The position numbers and the translations under genes are program-made. A DNA stretch of 43,749 nt from a virus (Duplodnaviria; Heunggongvirae; Uroviricota; Caudoviricetes): the IMG/VR virus record IMGVR_UViG_2675903595_000011. One strand, 5' to 3'. Under the pieces are notes generated by a model. The model worked only from the letters and a program-made list of their open reading frames with translations, did no database searches and was not told the DNA's origin. Shown in pieces: positions 19,476 to 43,749 of the stretch; position 1 is the stretch's first letter, and every line of letters begins with the position of its first letter.

Positions 19476-19727
19476 TTAGTCCTGATTTTTATCCACCCTG
19501 AGTAGTTCGCGCAGAGCAAAGGCATCCCCTTTTCTGGCAAGCTTAAACAATGCCGCTCGTAACTCGGCTTCACCTTTCGCTCTGCCCTTACGGATGGCCG
19601 CATAAAAATCTGTCATTGCTTCCCGATTTTCTTTCAGTCGGTTCAGATCAACATCCAGAACGTCAGCGATTTGTTGTGCAGTCATCCGGCACGCTGCCAG
19701 AGACTCGACTTTCGAATACGGAATCAT
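19476..19727 (-). CDS. hypothetical small protein
   Basis: 83-aa ORF upstream of packaging genes; start uncertain (overlaps upstream gene). Confidence 0.3.
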   Translation of the reverse strand: MIPYSKVESLAACRMTAQQIADVLDVDLNRLKENREAMTDFYAAIRKGRAKGEAELRAALFKLARKGDAFALRELLRVDKNQD

Positions 19728-20613
19728 TTGTCACCCCCATTGATATGCAGGGTGTCTTCTTCCTGTATTTTTCGTGAAGGATTTTTACTGCAGCGTTGTT
19801 CCAGGTGACCTGATGGTGAATGCGTTTATGACTGGCACCCATAAGTGAGATTTTTACGCACGACGGCGCATACATGACGGAGTAAAAACTTTTAACGTAG
19901 GTTCCGGAATCCAGATACAGCTCGGTCATTCCGCCGCTGTTTTTCTGCGTCTGTTTCTGCCCTAACTGGACAGCACCGATCGTCATAAACAATTCACCAC
20001 AGCGACCGAGATTCGTGTACGTATTCACATCCTCGTTAATGCGCCCCATGAATGAGAACGGTCGATCAACCGAACAGATAAAGCTGTTCATTGCCTTGCG
20101 TTTCACCCACGAAGCATGGCCGCCATTGTCACCAAGAAAATCCCCGCCCTGCGACATAGCGATGGAAAGAGCAGGTATTGATTCGTAGTACGCAAGCATT
20201 TCAGAAAGGATCTCATCCAGTTTCCTTATCGGGAAATAGGCCTGGTCATAGTTGCGATCCACCCGAAACTGGAACTCGTGATAATCATCATCGAGCTGAA
20301 TGAAGTATTTACACCCGACCAGTTTTGCCTGGTCGAAACAGGCATTACGGGCGTAAAAAATTGAGCGGCGGTCACTAAAATTATCGGCTTCGTCAAAACG
20401 ACTAGCAATATCGGCTTTGGAAAATACCAGCACCTGTTCACCAAATTCAGCCATGTACTGATGCCGTGTCTTATCTTCATCATCAACAACGATAAAAATT
20501 TTCCCGGTATAGCCAGCACGACGCAACGTCCGGTAAGTCAGAACTTTGTCCGGTCGCCCGTGAGTCAGAATAAAGGCGCAAAAATCATCACGCATATTCC
20601 TCCTCCCCGCCAT
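19663..20613 (-). CDS. hypothetical protein with DxD-type motif (possible nucleotide-sugar transferase)
   Basis: 316 aa; YFIQLDDDYHE motif; function not established. Confidence 0.4.
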   Translation of the reverse strand: MAGRRNMRDDFCAFILTHGRPDKVLTYRTLRRAGYTGKIFIVVDDEDKTRHQYMAEFGEQVLVFSKADIASRFDEADNFSDRRSIFYARNACFDQAKLVGCKYFIQLDDDYHEFQFRVDRNYDQAYFPIRKLDEILSEMLAYYESIPALSIAMSQGGDFLGDNGGHASWVKRKAMNSFICSVDRPFSFMGRINEDVNTYTNLGRCGELFMTIGAVQLGQKQTQKNSGGMTELYLDSGTYVKSFYSVMYAPSCVKISLMGASHKRIHHQVTWNNAAVKILHEKYRKKTPCISMGVTNDSVFESRVSGSVPDDCTTNR

Positions 20614-21376
20614 GCATGATCTCCACCATGCGCTGCGTCATTCGGACAAATCCATTTTCAATAGCCTGCTGATAATCAATGATCACCAGCGCCGACTCCT
20701 CGAAAAGGCACTGAATTTCAGCGGGGGCATGAGCGTAATAGTCCGCAATTCTGCTGAAATTAAACACCGTGTGACGTTCTGCTGCACACAGGAGGAATTT
20801 CTCAATATCAGGATCAAGGGACGCCGAACGTATCCGGCTGATCAGCTCCTGAGTTTTCGTATCGTCGTACAGTTCACTGATATCCGGTTTACCGCCTGAC
20901 GGCTCATAAACAGGCGTATCAATTTTCGTCGTATACGGCTCCTCCTCATTTCCTGTACCGGGCAAAACATCCGTCAACAGTTCATCAATTTCTGCCGGGA
21001 TGAAGCCTGTCAGGGAGACATCAAAATCAGCATTGATTAGGTCCGACAGCTCCATCCGCAACAGATCTTCATCCCAGCCAGCATTCATCGGCAGGCGATT
21101 ATCTGCCAGGCGGTACGCCTTTTTCTGCTCATCCGTCAGGCCAGACAGAACAATGACCGGAACAGAATCCATTTTGAGCATTTCAGCCGCCATAACACGA
21201 CCGTGACCCGCAATAATTTCGCCCTTTTCGTCAATCAGCACCGGATTAGTCCAGCCGAATTGCTTAATACTTTCTACCAGTTGTGCCACCTGCTCAGTAC
21301 TGTGCGTCCTGGCGTTGTGCGCATACGGTGACAATTCTTGTAATGGGCGATAGACTATCTTTAATTTCTCGCTCAT
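20588..21376 (-). CDS. ParB-like nuclease-domain protein
   Basis: N-terminal IIAGHGRVMAA resembles the ParB/Srx GxxR core. Confidence 0.65.
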   Translation of the reverse strand: MSEKLKIVYRPLQELSPYAHNARTHSTEQVAQLVESIKQFGWTNPVLIDEKGEIIAGHGRVMAAEMLKMDSVPVIVLSGLTDEQKKAYRLADNRLPMNAGWDEDLLRMELSDLINADFDVSLTGFIPAEIDELLTDVLPGTGNEEEPYTTKIDTPVYEPSGGKPDISELYDDTKTQELISRIRSASLDPDIEKFLLCAAERHTVFNFSRIADYYAHAPAEIQCLFEESALVIIDYQQAIENGFVRMTQRMVEIMHGGEEEYA

Positions 21377-21513: not shown

Positions 21514-22971
21514 TTAGGAGCGCCAAAAAAAACCTGAAAACAATATAATAACAGGATAAATTTCAAGGCGACCAAGAATCATAGCTATGCACATTAAATA
21601 TTTTGCAATGTCATTAAGCACTCCGAATGACGATGCAGTAGCCCCAAAACCTAATCCCATATTATTAATACATGCAGCCACTGTTGCAAATGATGTAAGA
21701 AAATCATATCCCATACCATTTAACACCAGTATAAAAAACACCGTGAAGAGAGTATAAAGAAAAAAGAAACTCCATACAGACCTCATTACACGATCTGTAA
21801 CTATCTTCCCTCCTACATTTACACTCAACAACGCTCTGGGATGAGAAAGCTGATTTATCTCGTGTTTGCTTTGTTTGAAAAGTATAAGAAATCGAAGTGA
21901 CTTAATTCCACCACAGGTTGAACCTATACATCCCCCAAAGAAACTTGACAACAGCAAAAACACTATCGTGTGCGTGGGCCAGTTTGCATAATCCTGCGTA
22001 GCTAAACCATTATCAGTGAGCATGGAGCTGGCAAGAAAAAACGAATGAATAAAACTTCCATGCAAGTCATACATACCTATATGCCAGACCTGGAAAGAGG
22101 TAACAATGATCACCCCTAAGGCTATTAACAGAAAGAAACGAAGTTCAATATCTCTGATTAAAGGTTTTATCGTTTTTCTGCTAATAACAATATACCAAAG
22201 AGTGAAGTTGAAAGCCGATAGCAGGGAAAAAGAACCAGCCACCAGCTCAACCAAATAGTTATTAAAATATCCGATACTCTCGCTATGAGTTGAGAAACCA
22301 CCAAGCGAAACTGTGGAAATCCCGTGACAAATAGCATCAAACAAAGGCATTCCTGCAAGTCTATAACAGACAATACAAGCAATACCTAATAAAGAATAAG
22401 TTATCCACAGTGTCCGTGACGTATCGGCCAGGCGGGGAGTGAGTTTGTCATCCTTAAATGGCCCCGGCATTTCTGACTGATAAAGCTTTGCACCACCAAT
22501 ACCCAATAATGGCAATACTGCAACCGCCAGAACAATAACTCCTAAACCACCTATAAAATTTAACTGTGACCGATAGTACAAATATGCCCGAGGTAATGAA
22601 CTAACATCATCAATTACAGTTGCTCCTGTTGTTGTTATTCCAGAAACCCCTTCAAACAGAGCATCAATGAACGTTAAATTAAGTTCTGAGTCAATCCATA
22701 AAGGGAATGCACTAATAACAGAAAACAAAATCCAAAACATTACAATTATAATAAACCCATCACGGGTACGTAATTGAATGCCAGATTTCTTAGTTGTATA
22801 CCACGCTCCGCCACCAATGCAAAAAAATATAACGAAAGTTATAAAGAAAACGAACAGGCTTTTTTCTTTATAAAACAATGCTACAACCATTGGTGGCAAC
22901 ATTGAAAGACTATAGAGCCAAACCAGGAACCCACACATATGAGTAACAACTCTTACATGAGATGTATTCAT
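21514..22971 (-). CDS. trkG: Trk potassium uptake membrane protein TrkG
   Basis: Polytopic membrane protein; N-terminus MNTSHVRVVTHMCGF... matches K-12 TrkG (a Rac prophage gene) as recalled. Confidence 0.9.
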   Translation of the reverse strand: MNTSHVRVVTHMCGFLVWLYSLSMLPPMVVALFYKEKSLFVFFITFVIFFCIGGGAWYTTKKSGIQLRTRDGFIIIVMFWILFSVISAFPLWIDSELNLTFIDALFEGVSGITTTGATVIDDVSSLPRAYLYYRSQLNFIGGLGVIVLAVAVLPLLGIGGAKLYQSEMPGPFKDDKLTPRLADTSRTLWITYSLLGIACIVCYRLAGMPLFDAICHGISTVSLGGFSTHSESIGYFNNYLVELVAGSFSLLSAFNFTLWYIVISRKTIKPLIRDIELRFFLLIALGVIIVTSFQVWHIGMYDLHGSFIHSFFLASSMLTDNGLATQDYANWPTHTIVFLLLSSFFGGCIGSTCGGIKSLRFLILFKQSKHEINQLSHPRALLSVNVGGKIVTDRVMRSVWSFFFLYTLFTVFFILVLNGMGYDFLTSFATVAACINNMGLGFGATASSFGVLNDIAKYLMCIAMILGRLEIYPVIILFSGFFWRS

Positions 22972-23108
22972 ATCTAAATATTCTTTCAATTATAACCACC
23001 TTGCTGCAATATTATGATTATACTGTATAAAATTTAACTCCTCTTAGATCTTACTTCACTGTTCCTTATGAAACAATCATCAAAATGAATCATATTGTAG
23101 TTAAGATT

Positions 23109-23573: not shown

Positions 23574-24089
23574 TGCTGACCCCACAAACAGATTTCACGC
23601 TCAATCTCACGACGAGTCATGAGACCTTTCCATTGCTTACCGCCAGCATATGTCCAGCGACGTAGCTGATCACATGCGCCTTTGATATCGCCCTGGTTTA
23701 TTTTGCGAAGAAGCGTCGATGTTCTGAAATTGCCAGCACCCACGTTGTAAACGAATGAGTAAAGAGCGCCGCGCGTTGTTTCCGGTATATCGACTTTGAT
23801 GTACGGGTTAATTTGTCTGGCGACAGTGGCAAGGTCTTTATTCAAGAGTGTTTTGCATTCTGCTTTGGTATACGTTTTACCGAGCATGATGTCTTTTCCT
23901 GTATGCCCGTGACATACAGTCCATACACCAACAATATCTTTGTATGGTATGTAGCTGACACCTTCCAGACCATCGTTACCACTTGGGCCAGTGATTAACA
24001 CTGATGCTATAGCAATTGCTCCGCCNNNNNNNNNNNNNNNNNNNNNNNNNNNNNNNNNNNNNNNNNNNNNNNCGTAATGATGGAGGCAT
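23570..24089 (-). CDS. SAR endolysin (T4-lysozyme-like); N-terminal region interrupted by assembly gap
   Basis: [25 protein letters not shown]... read up to the gap; MPPSLR start found on the far side, overlapping the holin stop. Confidence 0.8.
24026..24072. other. assembly gap (47 N) in endolysin 5' region
   Basis: Run of n characters. Confidence 1.
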
Positions 24090-24148
24090 TATTCACCTCT
24101 CGCAGCCTTGCGTAATGATGGCGACATTATTCACCTCTCGCAGCCTTA
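24073..24148. repeat. tandem direct repeat, 2 x 38 bp, spanning holin stop / endolysin start
   Basis: cgtaatgatggaggcattattcacctctcgcagccttg followed by cgtaatgatggcgacattattcacctctcgcagcctta. Confidence 0.9.
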
Positions 24149-24342
24149 CGCTTGTCTTCTCTTATTTTGAAATACAGATTTGTCAGATAAGTCAGAAGCC
24201 CCAGAAGCAGACTTCCCAGCACACCAATCGCAGCCCACTGTGATGGACTGACCTGATCCAACCACTGCAAAAACCAGTAGCCGGCACTGCCGGCGGAGGT
24301 GCCGTAGGCAATGCCTGTTGAAATTTTGTCCATGGATTTCAT
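24127..24342 (-). CDS. pinholin (phage 21 S-like), dual start
   Basis: [28 protein letters not shown]...; GGAGGTGA RBS; second Met at 24333. Confidence 0.85.
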
Positions 24343-24593
24343 AGCCTCACCTCCGCACGGAACGGATGGCATAGTTATTATGTGTAGGCTTTCAGACACA
24401 TCAATCAGAGCCTTAATTGATATATATGCTGGAGACGATGCAATATAAAAAGCTCGCCGTAGCGAGCTAATAAAATGTATTTCTCTGATATTATGTTTAT
24501 TTGTATTAGCTCAGACTTGACATCACAGGTTTCGTATATAGAACATCATCAAATCTGTCAGTTTGCTATGAATGAGATATAGTAATTGAAGAG

Positions 24594-24989
24594 CTAACCT
24601 CGCATGTCAAAGCCAGATTTCTGAAAATCTCTGTAGACTTCCGGATTGTTGAAGGCCGGAAATTTGGCTTTATGAGCTGCGGACTTTATCGCTTCGCAAT
24701 AGGCTTTATCACCGTTACTGGTAGATATTTTTAACGCCGTGCCATCCTGAGAGAATTCCATATGCAACCTGCATTTTTTCCCTTTCCAGTTATGCGGCTC
24801 ATCAAGTTTGGCATTAATTGCAGCTCTGATTCCCCGCGCTTGCGCCCCCCATTCATCCTGATCATCCCAGCGTCCTGAACTGCAACTACCTGTAGCAGTA
24901 GTTTTGTGGCAATCTGAAGGGTGTAAAGGTGTGCATCCCGCAACAAAACCGACCCAAAAAGTCAACATAACGATTTTCTTTAATCCCAC
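24594..24989 (-). CDS. lipoprotein with TolA C-terminal-domain-like region
   Basis: Signal peptide with VAGC lipobox; C-terminal ...CRLHMEFSQDG...NPEVYRDFQKSGFDMRG paralogous to the adjacent gene. Confidence 0.6.
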   Translation of the reverse strand: MGLKKIVMLTFWVGFVAGCTPLHPSDCHKTTATGSCSSGRWDDQDEWGAQARGIRAAINAKLDEPHNWKGKKCRLHMEFSQDGTALKISTSNGDKAYCEAIKSAAHKAKFPAFNNPEVYRDFQKSGFDMRG

Positions 24990-25139
24990 TTCTTGCTCCT
25001 CAATCCATTAAAATCTCAGCAATAGTAGTTGTTACGTCCGCCACTGGCTCAGAGCTGACTATCCGCTAAATTTAGCTCAGTGCCGTAGCTGTGTCAGAAC
25101 AAACCTAAGCCGAAACCGTTTATTACAAAACAATAAATA

Positions 25140-25568
25140 TCAGGGTTTAAAATCCAGCACCCCATTTTGAAATACTTTATATACTTCCGGCGAAGGGGGG
25201 GCAGGTATATCAGCATTCTTTATCGCATTCATCGCTTCACGACATAAATCGAGGTCTCCACTTTCTCTTTTAACCTCCAGTAGAAGGCCATTCGGGGCCA
25301 TATGCATTCTCAGTGTACACTCTTTTCCTGAATACTTACTCGCATCCCCGAACTGTTTTTCGATGGCGCTCTTGATTTGATGGGCATACAGACGGATATC
25401 CTCACTAACATCAGAAGTACGTTCAGATGAACTCACATACTGTGTCTCTATTGCTTTATCGGAGTAATATGATGTACGGTCATGATAATTTGTCGATACA
25501 GCATCAGTGCACCCGATAATAATCCCACTAATAATCAACGTAAGAATTGATGCGCTACGAAAACCCAT
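25140..25568 (-). CDS. lipoprotein with TolA domain-III-like C-terminus
   Basis: IIGC lipobox; C-terminal 80 aa read like the TolA C-terminus as recalled (...CTLR...PEVYKVFQNGVLDFKP). Confidence 0.7.
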   Translation of the reverse strand: MGFRSASILTLIISGIIIGCTDAVSTNYHDRTSYYSDKAIETQYVSSSERTSDVSEDIRLYAHQIKSAIEKQFGDASKYSGKECTLRMHMAPNGLLLEVKRESGDLDLCREAMNAIKNADIPAPPSPEVYKVFQNGVLDFKP

Positions 25569-26505
25569 TTTTCCTCACATATGTCATATAGTAAAGGATT
25601 ATATATACCGTTGTTTTGGACGCTCAAACAGCGAATCAGATCAAATAAAACGCACATTTGTTAACATTTACACAAAGTCTGCGTGGGATATTCTGAAAGA
25701 ATATCCATAATGTGGAGAGAATCTATTGAAGTGCATGGTGCCGGGTGCCTCCCGGTGAACAAAATGTTCGTGATACCTGTCGGCGACAGAAAAGGTTAAT
25801 GGTATCACCCCACCGCACAGGGGGATTCACCATGCAGGAGTTTTCTTAGCAAACTCACTGCGCGCCCGGCAACTCCCAACCACATAAAATGCGGAGTTTG
25901 TGGCATTTATGCATATAACTCGCAGGAATTATCTTAAAAAACTGATGTCGATCCGGATTAAAAAGAAGCAGGTCATCATCAGATGACTGGAAAAAAGGAA
26001 AACAAAAAATACTCATCATACAGTTTTGATTGCAGGGATGAGCCTGCTATGCACAATATGCAGAATATAAGCAAGATAAAAATATGCAGGCATATTATTT
26101 CGGATCTTGTTATTAACACAACCTTTTTAATAATCATTTGGCATACAATAAACCAGCCCAAAAAGAACCGCCTAAACAGGCGGTTGGTCAATACAAAGGA
26201 TGCTTCGTCTTTATTATAGTAATCTGAGGCGTCGGGTGTCTTGTATCAGACAACATATTGTCCCGCTAAACAGCGAATTACAAACCACCCTGCAATGATC
26301 TCTCATCTCATTTTATATGAGTTGACGACATCAGGATAACGCATCATCAGCCCCTGCCAAGAAATATCAAAACTCCCGCCAGCAATGTGTTATCACAATA
26401 TTGTAAAAAAAACACAGCACCGAAACTATAACTGGTCTCTGTTATAATTTGGAGCAGAAAGACCAGTTGCCCAACTAGCAGCATTCTCCCCTGCTTTCCT
26501 GACGT

Positions 26506-26532
26506 AAAAAAACCGCATTAAGCGGTTTTTTT
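26506..26532. terminator. perfect palindromic intrinsic terminator downstream of Q
   Basis: AAAAAAACCGC-attaa-GCGGTTTTTTT. Confidence 0.5.
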
Positions 26533-26612
26533 ACGATGTCCATGTCTGCAATCCGCCTCGCGATACAGCTTTGCGAAGCATAGCAAAATTGAAGCAGTTT
26601 ATACGTAAGAAA

Positions 26613-27155
26613 TCAAGCCATTTTCTCAGCAAATGATTCACGCATGGGAATATATAGGGCATACTCAGCAACAGCTAACCAATTAGCAATCCGTTTTTCG
26701 CATGTGCTAAAACACCACTCTGGGTGTGCATCATTTAGCAATTCAGCCATTTTGCGCTTAGTCATCCCCCGCCCTTCATAGCGTTGCCGGAGAATGCAAA
26801 TCAATCCTGGATGCTCTGCCAGCACCTCACTTATGACTCGATCAATACATAACGCCTCTGCATCAGTACAATGCGCCAGCCAGCTCTTTTGCTTGCCGTT
26901 GATCATCTCTCGCAAAAACGCTTCCAGCTCAGCTTTCTCTATTCCCGCTTTTTTCATTCTGCGCAGGGCTTCATTAATGGCTGTTTTCGTCAGTTTTTTG
27001 GATGCCAACAACTGATTGAACATATTCCCTGACCTGCCACCGCCAATATACGACCAGCGCCCCCACATACGTAGTTTTCCCTGAATCCAGACACTTTCCA
27101 GCGTGGTGAGGCGAAGGTGTTCTCCGCTTTTTCCTGTATTCGTTGGGTAAATCAT
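26613..27155 (-). CDS. late-gene antiterminator Q-like protein
   Basis: 180 aa ORF directly upstream of the lysis region; family assigned from memory and synteny. Confidence 0.65.
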   Translation of the reverse strand: MIYPTNTGKSGEHLRLTTLESVWIQGKLRMWGRWSYIGGGRSGNMFNQLLASKKLTKTAINEALRRMKKAGIEKAELEAFLREMINGKQKSWLAHCTDAEALCIDRVISEVLAEHPGLICILRQRYEGRGMTKRKMAELLNDAHPEWCFSTCEKRIANWLAVAEYALYIPMRESFAEKMA

Positions 27156-42513: not shown

Positions 42514-43749
42514 ATGTCTAAATTACCAACAGGTGTCGAGATTCGAGGTAAATACATTCGCATCTGGTTCATGTTTCGAGGAAAACGATGTCGGGAAACA
42601 TTGAAAGGCTGGGAGGTTACTAACAGTAACATTAAAAAAGCCGGGAATTTAAGAGCGTTGATAGTTCATGAAATCAATTCCGGTGAGTTTGAGTATTTAA
42701 GACGTTTTCCCCAGTCCAGCACTGGGGCAAAAATGGTGACAACGAGGGTCATAAAAACGTTCGGGGAGCTTTGTGATATCTGGACAAAAATTAAAGAAAC
42801 AGAGTTAACAACAAACACAATGAAGAAAACGAAATCACAATTAAAAACACTCAGGATAATAATTTGTGAGAGTACTCCGATATCGCATATTCGTTATAGC
42901 GATATCTTAAACTACCGGAATGAACTGCTGCATGGAGAAACGCTTTACCTGGATAATCCAAGATCCAACAAAAAAGGAAGAACCGTGCGCACAGTTGATA
43001 ACTATATCGCCCTGCTCTGTTCGTTGTTACGTTTTGCGTATCAGTCGGGATTTATATCAACCAAACCATTTGAAGGAGTAAAGAAATTACAGAGAAACAG
43101 AATAAAGCCTGACCCGTTATCTAAAACAGAATTCAATGCATTAATGGAAAGTGAAAAAGGACAGAGCCAGAACTTGTGGAAATTTGCCGTATACTCCGGG
43201 CTTCGTCACGGGGAACTGGCTGCTCTGGCGTGGGAGGATGTGGATTTCGAGAAGGGAGTTGTGAATGTCAGAAGAAACCTGACGATACTGGATATGTTCG
43301 GTCCCCCAAAAACAAATGCGGGGATCCGGACGGTAACACTACTGCAGCCTGCTCTTGAAGCACTGAAGGAGCAATACAAACTGACCGGGCATCATCGCAA
43401 AAGCGAAATCACTTTTTATCATCGGGAGTACGGCAGAACCGAAAAGCAAAAACTGCATTTTGTTTTCATGCCCAGAGTGTGTAACGGAAAACAGAAACCT
43501 TATTACTCGGTAAGCAGTTTGGGTGCGAGATGGAATGCAGCAGTAAAACGTGCTGGTATTCGCCGCCGTAATCCGTACCATACGCGGCATACTTTTGCCT
43601 GCTGGCTGTTGACGGCAGGAGCGAACCCGGCGTTTATAGCCAGCCAGATGGGGCATGAAACTGCGCAGATGGTGTATGAAATTTACGGTATGTGGATTGA
43701 TGACATGAACGACGAACAGGTAGCCATGTTGAATGCGCGGTTATCGTAG
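42514..43749 (+). CDS. intR: tyrosine integrase
   Basis: 411 aa; C-terminal catalytic-region residues (R...HxxR...Y); stop codon is the last 3 nt of the window. Confidence 0.95.
   Translation: MSKLPTGVEIRGKYIRIWFMFRGKRCRETLKGWEVTNSNIKKAGNLRALIVHEINSGEFEYLRRFPQSSTGAKMVTTRVIKTFGELCDIWTKIKETELTTNTMKKTKSQLKTLRIIICESTPISHIRYSDILNYRNELLHGETLYLDNPRSNKKGRTVRTVDNYIALLCSLLRFAYQSGFISTKPFEGVKKLQRNRIKPDPLSKTEFNALMESEKGQSQNLWKFAVYSGLRHGELAALAWEDVDFEKGVVNVRRNLTILDMFGPPKTNAGIRTVTLLQPALEALKEQYKLTGHHRKSEITFYHREYGRTEKQKLHFVFMPRVCNGKQKPYYSVSSLGARWNAAVKRAGIRRRNPYHTRHTFACWLLTAGANPAFIASQMGHETAQMVYEIYGMWIDDMNDEQVAMLNARLS

Follow-up and report, generated by a model that had tools for sequence, protein, structure and literature searches.

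The DNA considered here, a stretch of 43,749 nucleotides (nt) from the IMG/VR virus record IMGVR_UViG_2675903595_000011 (Caudoviricetes), is a complete Rac-like lambdoid prophage of Escherichia coli; we refer to the whole of it as the window, and all coordinates are counted from its first letter. In its late region, two adjacent genes encode small lipoproteins of 142 and 131 amino acids (aa), each of them made of a signal peptide, a short linker and a stand-alone copy of the C-terminal domain of the host envelope protein TolA (domain III, TolA-III). Both genes lie on the minus strand, with a Q-like antiterminator gene upstream and the first gene of the lysis cassette, a holin, downstream:

25140-25568, minus strand: gene of the 142-aa lipoprotein, an intact open reading frame (ORF) with an ATG start
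24594-24989, minus strand: gene of the 131-aa lipoprotein, an intact ORF with a GTG start after a GAGGAG Shine-Dalgarno sequence

The original prediction had recognized two lipoprotein genes at this place from their lipoboxes, IIGC and VAGC, and both were recovered at these exact coordinates and on this strand. The 142-aa protein starts with MGFRSASILTLIISGIIIGC, and its signal peptide, MGFRSASILTLIISGIIIG, is followed by the lipobox cysteine Cys20 (codon 25509-25511), with the box reading IIGC and a Thr at position +2. In the 131-aa protein, which starts with MGLKKIVMLTFWVGFVAGC, the signal peptide MGLKKIVMLTFWVGFVAG precedes Cys19 (codon 24933-24935) in the box VAGC, again with Thr at +2. 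According to the Asp(+2) retention rule, a residue other than Asp at this position predicts the sorting of a lipoprotein to the outer membrane. The Thr that follows the lipid-modified cysteine thus predicts that both proteins are outer-membrane lipoproteins.

After the lipid anchor, the 142-aa protein shows a disordered linker (residues 21-50) and a TolA-III domain (residues 51-142, approximately window positions 25143-25418) that ends in LDFKP, which contains the terminal DFKP on which the first identification of a TolA-like C-terminus partly relied. The 131-aa protein has a linker at residues 20-45 and the domain at residues 46-131, with FDMRG as its C-terminus. The Pfam family TolA_C (PF06519, gathering cut-off 25 bits) confirmed the identification for the two proteins, with E=2.4e-23 and 82.6 bits for the 142-aa copy, and E=1.3e-14 and 54.6 bits for the 131-aa copy, and phmmer searches against the TolA chains of the PDB gave E values of about 1e-27 and, for residues 50-129 of the shorter protein, about 5e-9. 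An alignment with E. coli TolA had been proposed as a check, and residues 55-142 of the longer protein align to TolA 334-421 with 52 identical positions out of 88 (59%), while the 131-aa protein shares 27 out of 85 (32%) with the same segment.

Structure prediction, the other check that had been suggested, led to the same domain. AlphaFold2 models of both proteins, compared with the PDB by Foldseek (template modelling, or TM, scores normalised to the target), have a predicted local distance difference test (pLDDT) of around 90 or more over the domain, with low confidence for the 40-50 preceding residues, which correspond to the signal peptide and the linker, and they follow the order of secondary structure elements of TolA-III. 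For both copies, the best PDB matches are the E. coli TolA-III entries 3qdp, 3qdr, 2x9a and 1tol (TM 0.81-0.96), far ahead of the C-terminal domains of TonB; the 142-aa model scores 0.85-0.96, with the maximum of 0.96 against 2x9a_B, and the 131-aa model 0.81-0.90. The cysteine pair of TolA-III (C363 and C388 of E. coli TolA) is aligned in both copies and invariant across the family alignments, and a disulfide bond is predicted.

The rest of TolA has no counterpart in these proteins. Instead of domain I, the transmembrane segment that couples TolA to TolQ and TolR, there is in both of them the N-terminal lipoprotein signal peptide, and in place of domain II, the long periplasmic helix, just 25-30 aa of a low-confidence linker precede the domain. 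Models of full-length TolA in NCBIfam are matched by both copies only over their last 80-95 positions; for NF007065, which has a cut-off of 213, the 142-aa copy reaches 107.8 and the 131-aa copy 53.7, with only profile positions 293-387 being matched. Because they are devoid of the domain I anchor and of the domain II helix, the two proteins cannot be energised by TolQR, hence our reading of them as unpowered imitations of the TolA tip.

How faithful each mimic could be is best judged at the edges of TolA-III where its ligands dock. The β3 strand (A415-K420) is the site of strand addition for g3p-N1, colicin N (ColN) and the N-terminus of TolB, and the mutations D418P or K420P abolish the binding of all three (PMC4339652, PMC7391070). 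The interaction of TolA with Pal, which the original prediction named together with that with TolB, is disputed (PMC7391070). Colicin A (ColA) docks elsewhere, on the β2 strand L375-P380 and on residues K368, K379 and K396 (PMC3365938). In the 142-aa copy, the β3 residues L417, D418, F419, K420 and P421 are all identical (LDFKP); its β2 strand reads LLEVKR against LLDIKP in TolA, and of the ColA contacts it retains K379 and K396 but has a His in place of K368. In the 131-aa copy, β3 reads FDMRG, which keeps D418 and residues that favour a β strand, the three ColA-contact lysines are replaced by Glu, Ser and His, and D377 has become Lys. Judging from these residues, the 142-aa protein would imitate the TolA tip of the host closely, and the 131-aa protein would be a diverged version of it; since the latter is without the ColA-contact lysines and has a changed β3, a difference in specificity between the two is probable.

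The two genes had been described as tandem paralogues. They are certainly paralogous and adjacent, although a recent tandem duplication at this place has to be rejected, as the two are just 29% identical to each other and each type is found without the other elsewhere. For the same reasons, we regard them as distant paralogues that have come to lie side by side.

The linker of the 131-aa protein deserves a separate description. It covers residues 20-45 (window 24855-24932), with the sequence CTPLHPSDCHKTTATGSCSSGRWDDQDEWG, and follows the pattern C-x7-C-HKTTATGS-C-SSGRWDDQDEWG, thus carrying two extra cysteines, as well as two tryptophans within an acidic stretch. Despite its predicted disorder, this linker is near-invariant across genera. 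When the 131-aa gene of the window was compared with its plasmid and chromosomal homologues, the ratio of non-synonymous to synonymous substitution rates (dN/dS) was 0.06-0.12 overall and 0.02-0.10 in the linker, which is therefore as constrained as the domain. From these values it follows that the genes are functional and that the linker of the 131 family has a specific role. We considered the TolB box of colicins as a reading of this linker and rejected it: the core of the box, DG[ST]GWSSE (PMC2821528), is absent from SSGRWDDQDEWG, only a tryptophan aligns, and the spacing between tryptophans is 6, not 7.

RefSeq names the 131-aa gene a cell envelope integrity TolA C-terminal domain-containing protein and sets its start at Met8, which is probably seven codons too late. 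The GTG start is the likelier one, because a start at Met8 drops the charged n-region of the signal peptide and because the GTG is conserved across homologues. Upstream of the 131-type genes, approximately 110 nt are conserved across genera and contexts and travel with the gene; within them, only the Shine-Dalgarno sequence and the GTG stand out clearly, and neither a sigma-70 promoter nor the box of a known regulator could be recognized with conviction.

The two proteins are part of a large family, that of the stand-alone TolA-III lipoproteins, on which purifying selection acts strongly. An exhaustive profile search of 1.84 billion cluster representatives gave 574 matches at E<1e-3, many of which are stand-alone proteins of 118-150 aa. 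Among the representatives that were fetched, 46 of 54 carry a strict lipobox ([LVI][ASTVI][GAS]C) and none of these 46 has an Asp at +2, and many of the proteins end in LDF[KR][PL]; all the near-full-length members examined have a lipobox or a lipobox-like motif. In PHROGs, the two proteins fall into phrog_5772, a group of unknown function, and a functional study of such proteins was not found in the literature. The pair represents a new architectural variant of a known domain, with TolA-III standing alone in a predicted outer-membrane lipoprotein borne by mobile elements.

Regarding its distribution, DNA spanning both genes (24400-25800, with presence taken as at least 80% coverage) occurs in 772 of 5426 complete E. 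coli genomes (~14%), nearly always with at least 99% identity. A site joining the two flanks of the cassette, that is an exact empty site, was not found in the E. coli genomes searched. A comparison of uropathogenic E. coli strains lists a prophage-specific segment of 1,355 bp annotated as “TolA protein, hypothetical protein” (PMC6854850). Among sequenced phages, just one of 50,697 records carries the cassette (tblastn, 142-aa query), Escherichia phage mEp460_ev081 (LR597641.1), where the annotation is “TolA protein”; the Q and endolysin modules of this phage differ from those of the window, its name suggests an evolved derivative, and it may owe the cassette to a recombination event involving a resident prophage. 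The BFVD library of viral structures contained no TolA-III fold.

The two types differ in the replicons that carry them. The 142-aa type was seen only among proteins named as E. coli or Shigella, and in late regions of prophages wherever its context was examined; the single “plasmid” record that spans it is a replicon of 4.9 Mb. In late regions resembling those of Stx phages, a relative of this gene with 66% identity occupies the slot from Q to the holin without the 131-aa type, and its neighbours there include an AraC-like gene and a nanS-p-like esterase; this is in line with the earlier remark that the location is the one where stx and other conversion genes sit in related phages. No tRNA genes were detected in the late region of the window, and they are present in the Stx-type relatives. 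The 131-aa type occurs on ~600 plasmids with ~87% DNA identity, 302 of the 607 carriers being non-mobilisable. In an IncK2/Z plasmid of Shigella sonnei that was examined, the gene is the third one after nikA-nikB, on the same strand, 67 bp past nikB and facing trbABC; the order nikA, nikB and TolA-like gene is repeated in two further contigs, and the copy in pO157 adjoins a truncated nikB-like ORF, which suggests that it derives from an IncI-type relaxase module. Two contigs of 8 kb binned as metagenome-assembled genomes of Lachnospiraceae and Treponemataceae carry the enterobacterial nikA-nikB-TolA-like module with 89% protein identity, and they are probably binning contaminants from an IncI-type plasmid.

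Homologues of the 131-aa type are also chromosomal in at least 12 genera, among them Klebsiella, Enterobacter, Citrobacter, Leclercia, Pantoea, Raoultella, Serratia and Rouxiella, as a single gene with 65-89% identity. Their neighbours look like housekeeping genes, which vary between genera and are stable within a genus (e.g. Leclercia or Enterobacter). Further contexts are an IncFII plasmid of Klebsiella and a chromosome of Enterobacter. The family is therefore not specific to phages, being found on plasmids and in chromosomes as well.

Returning to the window, the cargo slot between Q and holin, in which the pair had been placed, could be confirmed on both sides. The features that define it, together with the integrase of the prophage and the candidate expression signals found by scans for consensus promoters and terminators, are the following:

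42514-43749: integrase
26613-27155, minus strand: Q-like antiterminator (DUF1133, Pfam E=2.5e-107; Phage_antitermQ, PF06530, 26.1 bits against a cut-off of 26, that is at threshold)
26213-26242, minus strand: late promoter-like site, AAGACA-18 nt-TATAAT (consensus scan)
26166-26185, minus strand: terminator-like hairpin, with a fold modestly better than that of shuffled sequences (z=-1.9)
25598-25627, minus strand: sigma-70 promoter-like site, TTGAGC-18 nt-TATAAT (10 of 12 consensus matches)
25069-25097, minus strand: weaker promoter-like site upstream of the 131-aa gene, CTGACA-17 nt-TAAATT (9 of 12 consensus matches)
24451-24468, minus strand: intrinsic-terminator hairpin between the 131-aa gene and the holin, AGCUCGC-UACG-GCGAGCU followed by UUUUUAUAUU (terminator scan)
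24127-24342, minus strand: P21-type holin, essD-like, first gene of the lysis cassette (Pfam PF04971, E=1e-35)

By analogy with lambdoid late regions, the segment 26154-26242 would correspond to the pR'/tR' signals that such regions have behind their Q gene. The -10 box of the promoter-like site at 25598-25627 ends 30 nt upstream of the start codon of the 142-aa gene and is followed by a Shine-Dalgarno sequence, GAGGA. Since there is no terminator between the two genes, they may be co-transcribed, and the hairpin beyond the second one, with which the cassette would close, folds with -13 kcal/mol (z=-4.2, none of 200 shuffled sequences being equally good). Taken as the consensus matches that they are, these signals make the pair look like a moron, with transcription signals of its own and with Q-modified late transcripts that would run through it as well. 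In the IMG/VR prophage loci printed for comparison, the pair and the holin keep a fixed spacing while the Q module and the endolysin type vary.

The same segment holds other RNA matches. Positions 25679-25865 (minus strand), between the tR'-like terminator and the promoter-like site of the 142-aa gene, strongly match the small RNA (sRNA) family STnc100 over its full length (Rfam RF02076, 86.6 bits, with the gathering score at 47), and the DNA that the window has in common with phage mEp460_ev081 stops at ~25759, within this element. Just downstream of the Q-like gene, at 26451-26579, the Hfq-binding sRNA isrK gives weak matches on both strands, at ~21 bits and so below its gathering score of 50, which are probably due to chance or to a distant relative.

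What could be the role of a TolA tip that would hang from the wrong membrane? The original prediction was of a decoy for group A colicins and the g3p of Ff phages, or else of a modulator of the envelope, and both are plausible in view of the anatomy of the two proteins. Our favoured reading, to which we give a probability of roughly 45%, is that they would be outer-membrane-tethered mimics of TolA-III, not coupled to the proton motive force, which capture the ligands of TolA and thereby confer tolerance to TolA-dependent invaders. The model builds on what the data show, namely the identity of the domain, the lipobox, the conserved cysteines, the sequence signals, the distribution and the selective constraint; localisation, ligand binding, timing of expression and phenotype are what we infer in it. 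The lipid anchor, followed by a linker of 25-30 residues, would hold the disulfide-stabilised domain at the inner face of the outer membrane, and the proteins would then be located with the TolB-Pal complexes, where the translocation domains of colicins and g3p-N1 enter the periplasm. The 142-aa copy would bind the partners of the host domain, namely g3p-N1, ColN, the N-terminus of TolB and probably ColA, and the 131-aa copy, which has diverged at both edges, probably another range of ligands. Invaders that depend on TolA, such as group A colicins, related bacteriocins and the g3p of Ff and If1 phages, would be trapped on a dead-end receptor, and the lysogen or the plasmid host would become tolerant to Tol-dependent bacteriocins and exclude TolA-dependent filamentous phages. 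The putative promoter of the cassette would drive expression in the lysogen, and Q-antiterminated late transcripts would give a high level during lytic growth.

Two precedents lend support to the capture of invaders that need TolA. Periplasmic pIII-N1 sequesters TolA, with resistance to colicin A and a 4-log fall in phage uptake as a result (PMC10424213), and the outer membrane is disturbed when TolAIII is placed in the periplasm (PMC6195910, with reference to Wan & Baneyx 1998 and Levengood-Freyermuth 1993). The replicons that carry the 131-aa type also fit the model to some extent. If1 and Ff phages, for which TolA-III is the co-receptor (PDB 2x9a and 1tol, both among the fold matches), enter the cell at I-type and F-type pili, respectively, and the link of the 131-aa type with plasmids is suggestive because such pili attract TolA-dependent filamentous phages.

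Several observations weigh against a simple decoy. A competitor of TolA-III should also compete for TolB and could damage the function of the Tol-Pal system, so that its expression must be low or its affinity tuned. The 131-aa copy is without the known ColA contacts and has a changed β3 strand, and the strong conservation of the linker in its family suggests an activity outside this model. The promoter-like site before the 142-aa gene was recognized by its consensus alone and has no conserved counterpart upstream of the 66%-identical homologue. Moreover, no family among the defence models of PADLOC-DB was matched (E<=1), and no bacteriocin, immunity or phage-defence gene is a conserved neighbour across genera around the 29 chromosomal, plasmid or unassigned homologues. 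A wider version of the decoy model, where stand-alone TolA-III lipoproteins from prophages, plasmids and chromosomes alike would form an unrecognised and widespread layer of immunity in Enterobacterales by mimicry of a periplasmic receptor, with subfamilies covering different invaders and the 131 linker acting as a second functional element, seems to us rather unlikely.

Other explanations have to be weighed together with the decoy. The late position of the pair could indicate a helper of lysis or vesiculation, where the proteins, expressed at a high level from the Q-dependent late promoter, would titrate the N-terminus of TolB from TolA, block the Tol-driven release of Pal and loosen the outer membrane, speeding up the last step of lysis or raising the release of vesicles. 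Such a role would suit the location of the pair downstream of the pR'/tR'-like signals and immediately upstream of the holin, at the fixed spacing described above amid varying Q and endolysin modules; periplasmic TolAIII is used in biotechnology to obtain a leaky outer membrane (a statement of PMC6195910 that cites Wan & Baneyx 1998), and a review on Tol-Pal holds that modulated TolB interactions could regulate vesicle production (PMC7391070). However, the cassette has its own promoter-like site and is separated from the holin by a predicted terminator, the 131-type homologues of chromosomes and plasmids are not accompanied by lysis genes, and the single carrier among 50,697 phage records, together with the lack of the fold in the viral structure library, means that the pair is not a usual component of lysis; we hold this role to be unlikely. 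An endogenous origin is the basis of another explanation, in our opinion of equally low probability. An accessory lipoprotein of Enterobacterales with a physiological partner, be it TolB, CpoB or a protein bound by the linker, would tune Tol-Pal or the outer membrane, and the prophage and plasmid copies would be passengers with a fitness benefit for the envelope. The stability of the chromosomal 131-type homologues within genera, their strong purifying selection, the size and diversity of the family with its 574 cluster representatives and a linker as constrained as the domain are all in line with a house function of this kind. They have to be set against chromosomal positions that vary between genera, as is typical of horizontally moved accessory genes, against the repeated recruitment of the gene by plasmids and prophages, and against the presence of the pair in just 14% of complete E. 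coli genomes, which tells that the function is not a core one.

The plasmid contexts raise the question of a role in conjugation, with the 131-aa type as an accessory of the transfer region of IncI-complex plasmids, either for a local relaxing of the envelope around the pilus or channel or for entry exclusion, and with the prophage copy as a by-product of recombination. The gene of the IncK2/Z plasmid, 67 bp past nikB on the strand of nikA-nikB and facing trbABC, the same gene order in two more contigs and the truncated nikB-like ORF beside the pO157 copy would all agree with it. Nevertheless, half of the carrying plasmids (302 of 607) are non-mobilisable, there are no transfer genes near the chromosomal and prophage copies, and the 142-aa type was not found on plasmids apart from the 4.9-Mb replicon, so we regard a role in conjugation as very improbable. 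The notion that the ORFs are non-functional debris, the decaying fragments of a captured tolA, is contradicted by the data and has almost no credit with us. It is implied by RefSeq, which at the position of the 142-aa gene (entry NZ_CP033250) has only a tolA pseudogene of 261 nt, “incomplete, missing N-terminus”, and this labelling of an intact gene is systematic. The label is explained by the C-terminal domain alone passing the cut-off of TIGR02794 (75.6 against 59.45 bits). Both ORFs are in fact intact, with signal peptide, lipobox and a complete domain, their sequence is identical or near-identical in 772 complete genomes, their protein clusters have hundreds of members, and dN/dS is ~0.1.

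A decoy made from the tip of TolA can be compared with several known systems. E. coli TolA-III itself (1TOL, 1S62, 2X9A, 3QDP/3QDR) shares the fold and the cysteine pair with both lipoproteins, and with the 142-aa copy also 59% of its residues and an identical β3 docking edge, whereas the 131-aa copy has changed in β3 and in the ColA-contact residues. In contrast to the host protein, which reaches out from the inner membrane, the pair has no domains I and II, no link to the TolQR motor, and is predicted to hang from the outer membrane. Small phage lipoproteins such as Llp of T5 and Cor of phi80, N15 and HK022, which are encoded by accessory genes, reside in the inner leaflet of the outer membrane and keep other phages and colicins out of the cell. 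They bear no sequence or fold relation to the TolA-III pair and are comparable only in the way they work, with the difference that Llp and Cor block the receptor FhuA itself, whereas the pair would imitate a periplasmic co-receptor. The immunity that g3p (pIII) confers on Ff-infected cells targets the same interaction of TolA-III (PMC10424213) and would be the mirror image of a decoy, as there the ligand is overproduced to occupy TolA and here the ligand would be engaged by an extra copy of the TolA tip. Finally, recombinant periplasmic TolAIII, produced from signal sequence fusions, is likewise a free TolA-III in the periplasm without the rest of TolA, and is reported in a passage of PMC6195910 to disturb the integrity of the outer membrane and to be used for the release of periplasmic proteins. 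That construct is artificial, soluble and overexpressed, unlike the prophage pair, which is natural, predicted to be lipid-anchored, located on mobile elements and conserved by selection. The 1993 work of Levengood-Freyermuth et al. is also said to have described colicin tolerance.

If the two lipoproteins were decoys, they would stand for a new type of exclusion and tolerance, based on the mimicry of a periplasmic co-receptor rather than on a blocked surface receptor, at the shared entry point that TolA-III is for group A colicins and filamentous phages. In such a case, and given carriage by about one in seven complete E. coli genomes, plus the ~600 plasmids (including pO157 and IncK2/Z) with a relative of the 131-aa gene, there would be consequences for antibacterials based on colicins or filamentous phages, for phage display hosts and for competition in the gut. 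The proteins would also serve as a natural probe of the TolA-TolB interaction.

Some other features of the prophage were noted along the way. It also encodes a RecE-like exonuclease, a tape-measure protein, terminase genes and trkG, and the lysis cassette consists of the P21-type holin, a lysozyme and Rz/Rz1. The window contains masked runs of N at 2626-2919 and 24026-24072, the second of which falls in the 5' part of the endolysin gene; for this reason the lysozyme ORF looks shortened (143 aa from a GTG, against the 498-nt rrrD of an identical prophage). The potassium transporter gene trkG (21514-22989, minus strand) comes directly after Rz/Rz1, as in Rac, and is another cargo gene of the late region, with a guanine and cytosine content of 37.7%, the lowest of the region. 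Between the terminase genes and trkG, at 19663-21376 (minus strand), a TET-associated glycosyltransferase (PF20691, E=4e-34) and a protein with a ParB_N domain are encoded, a pair that may constitute a DNA-modification or anti-restriction module of the prophage.

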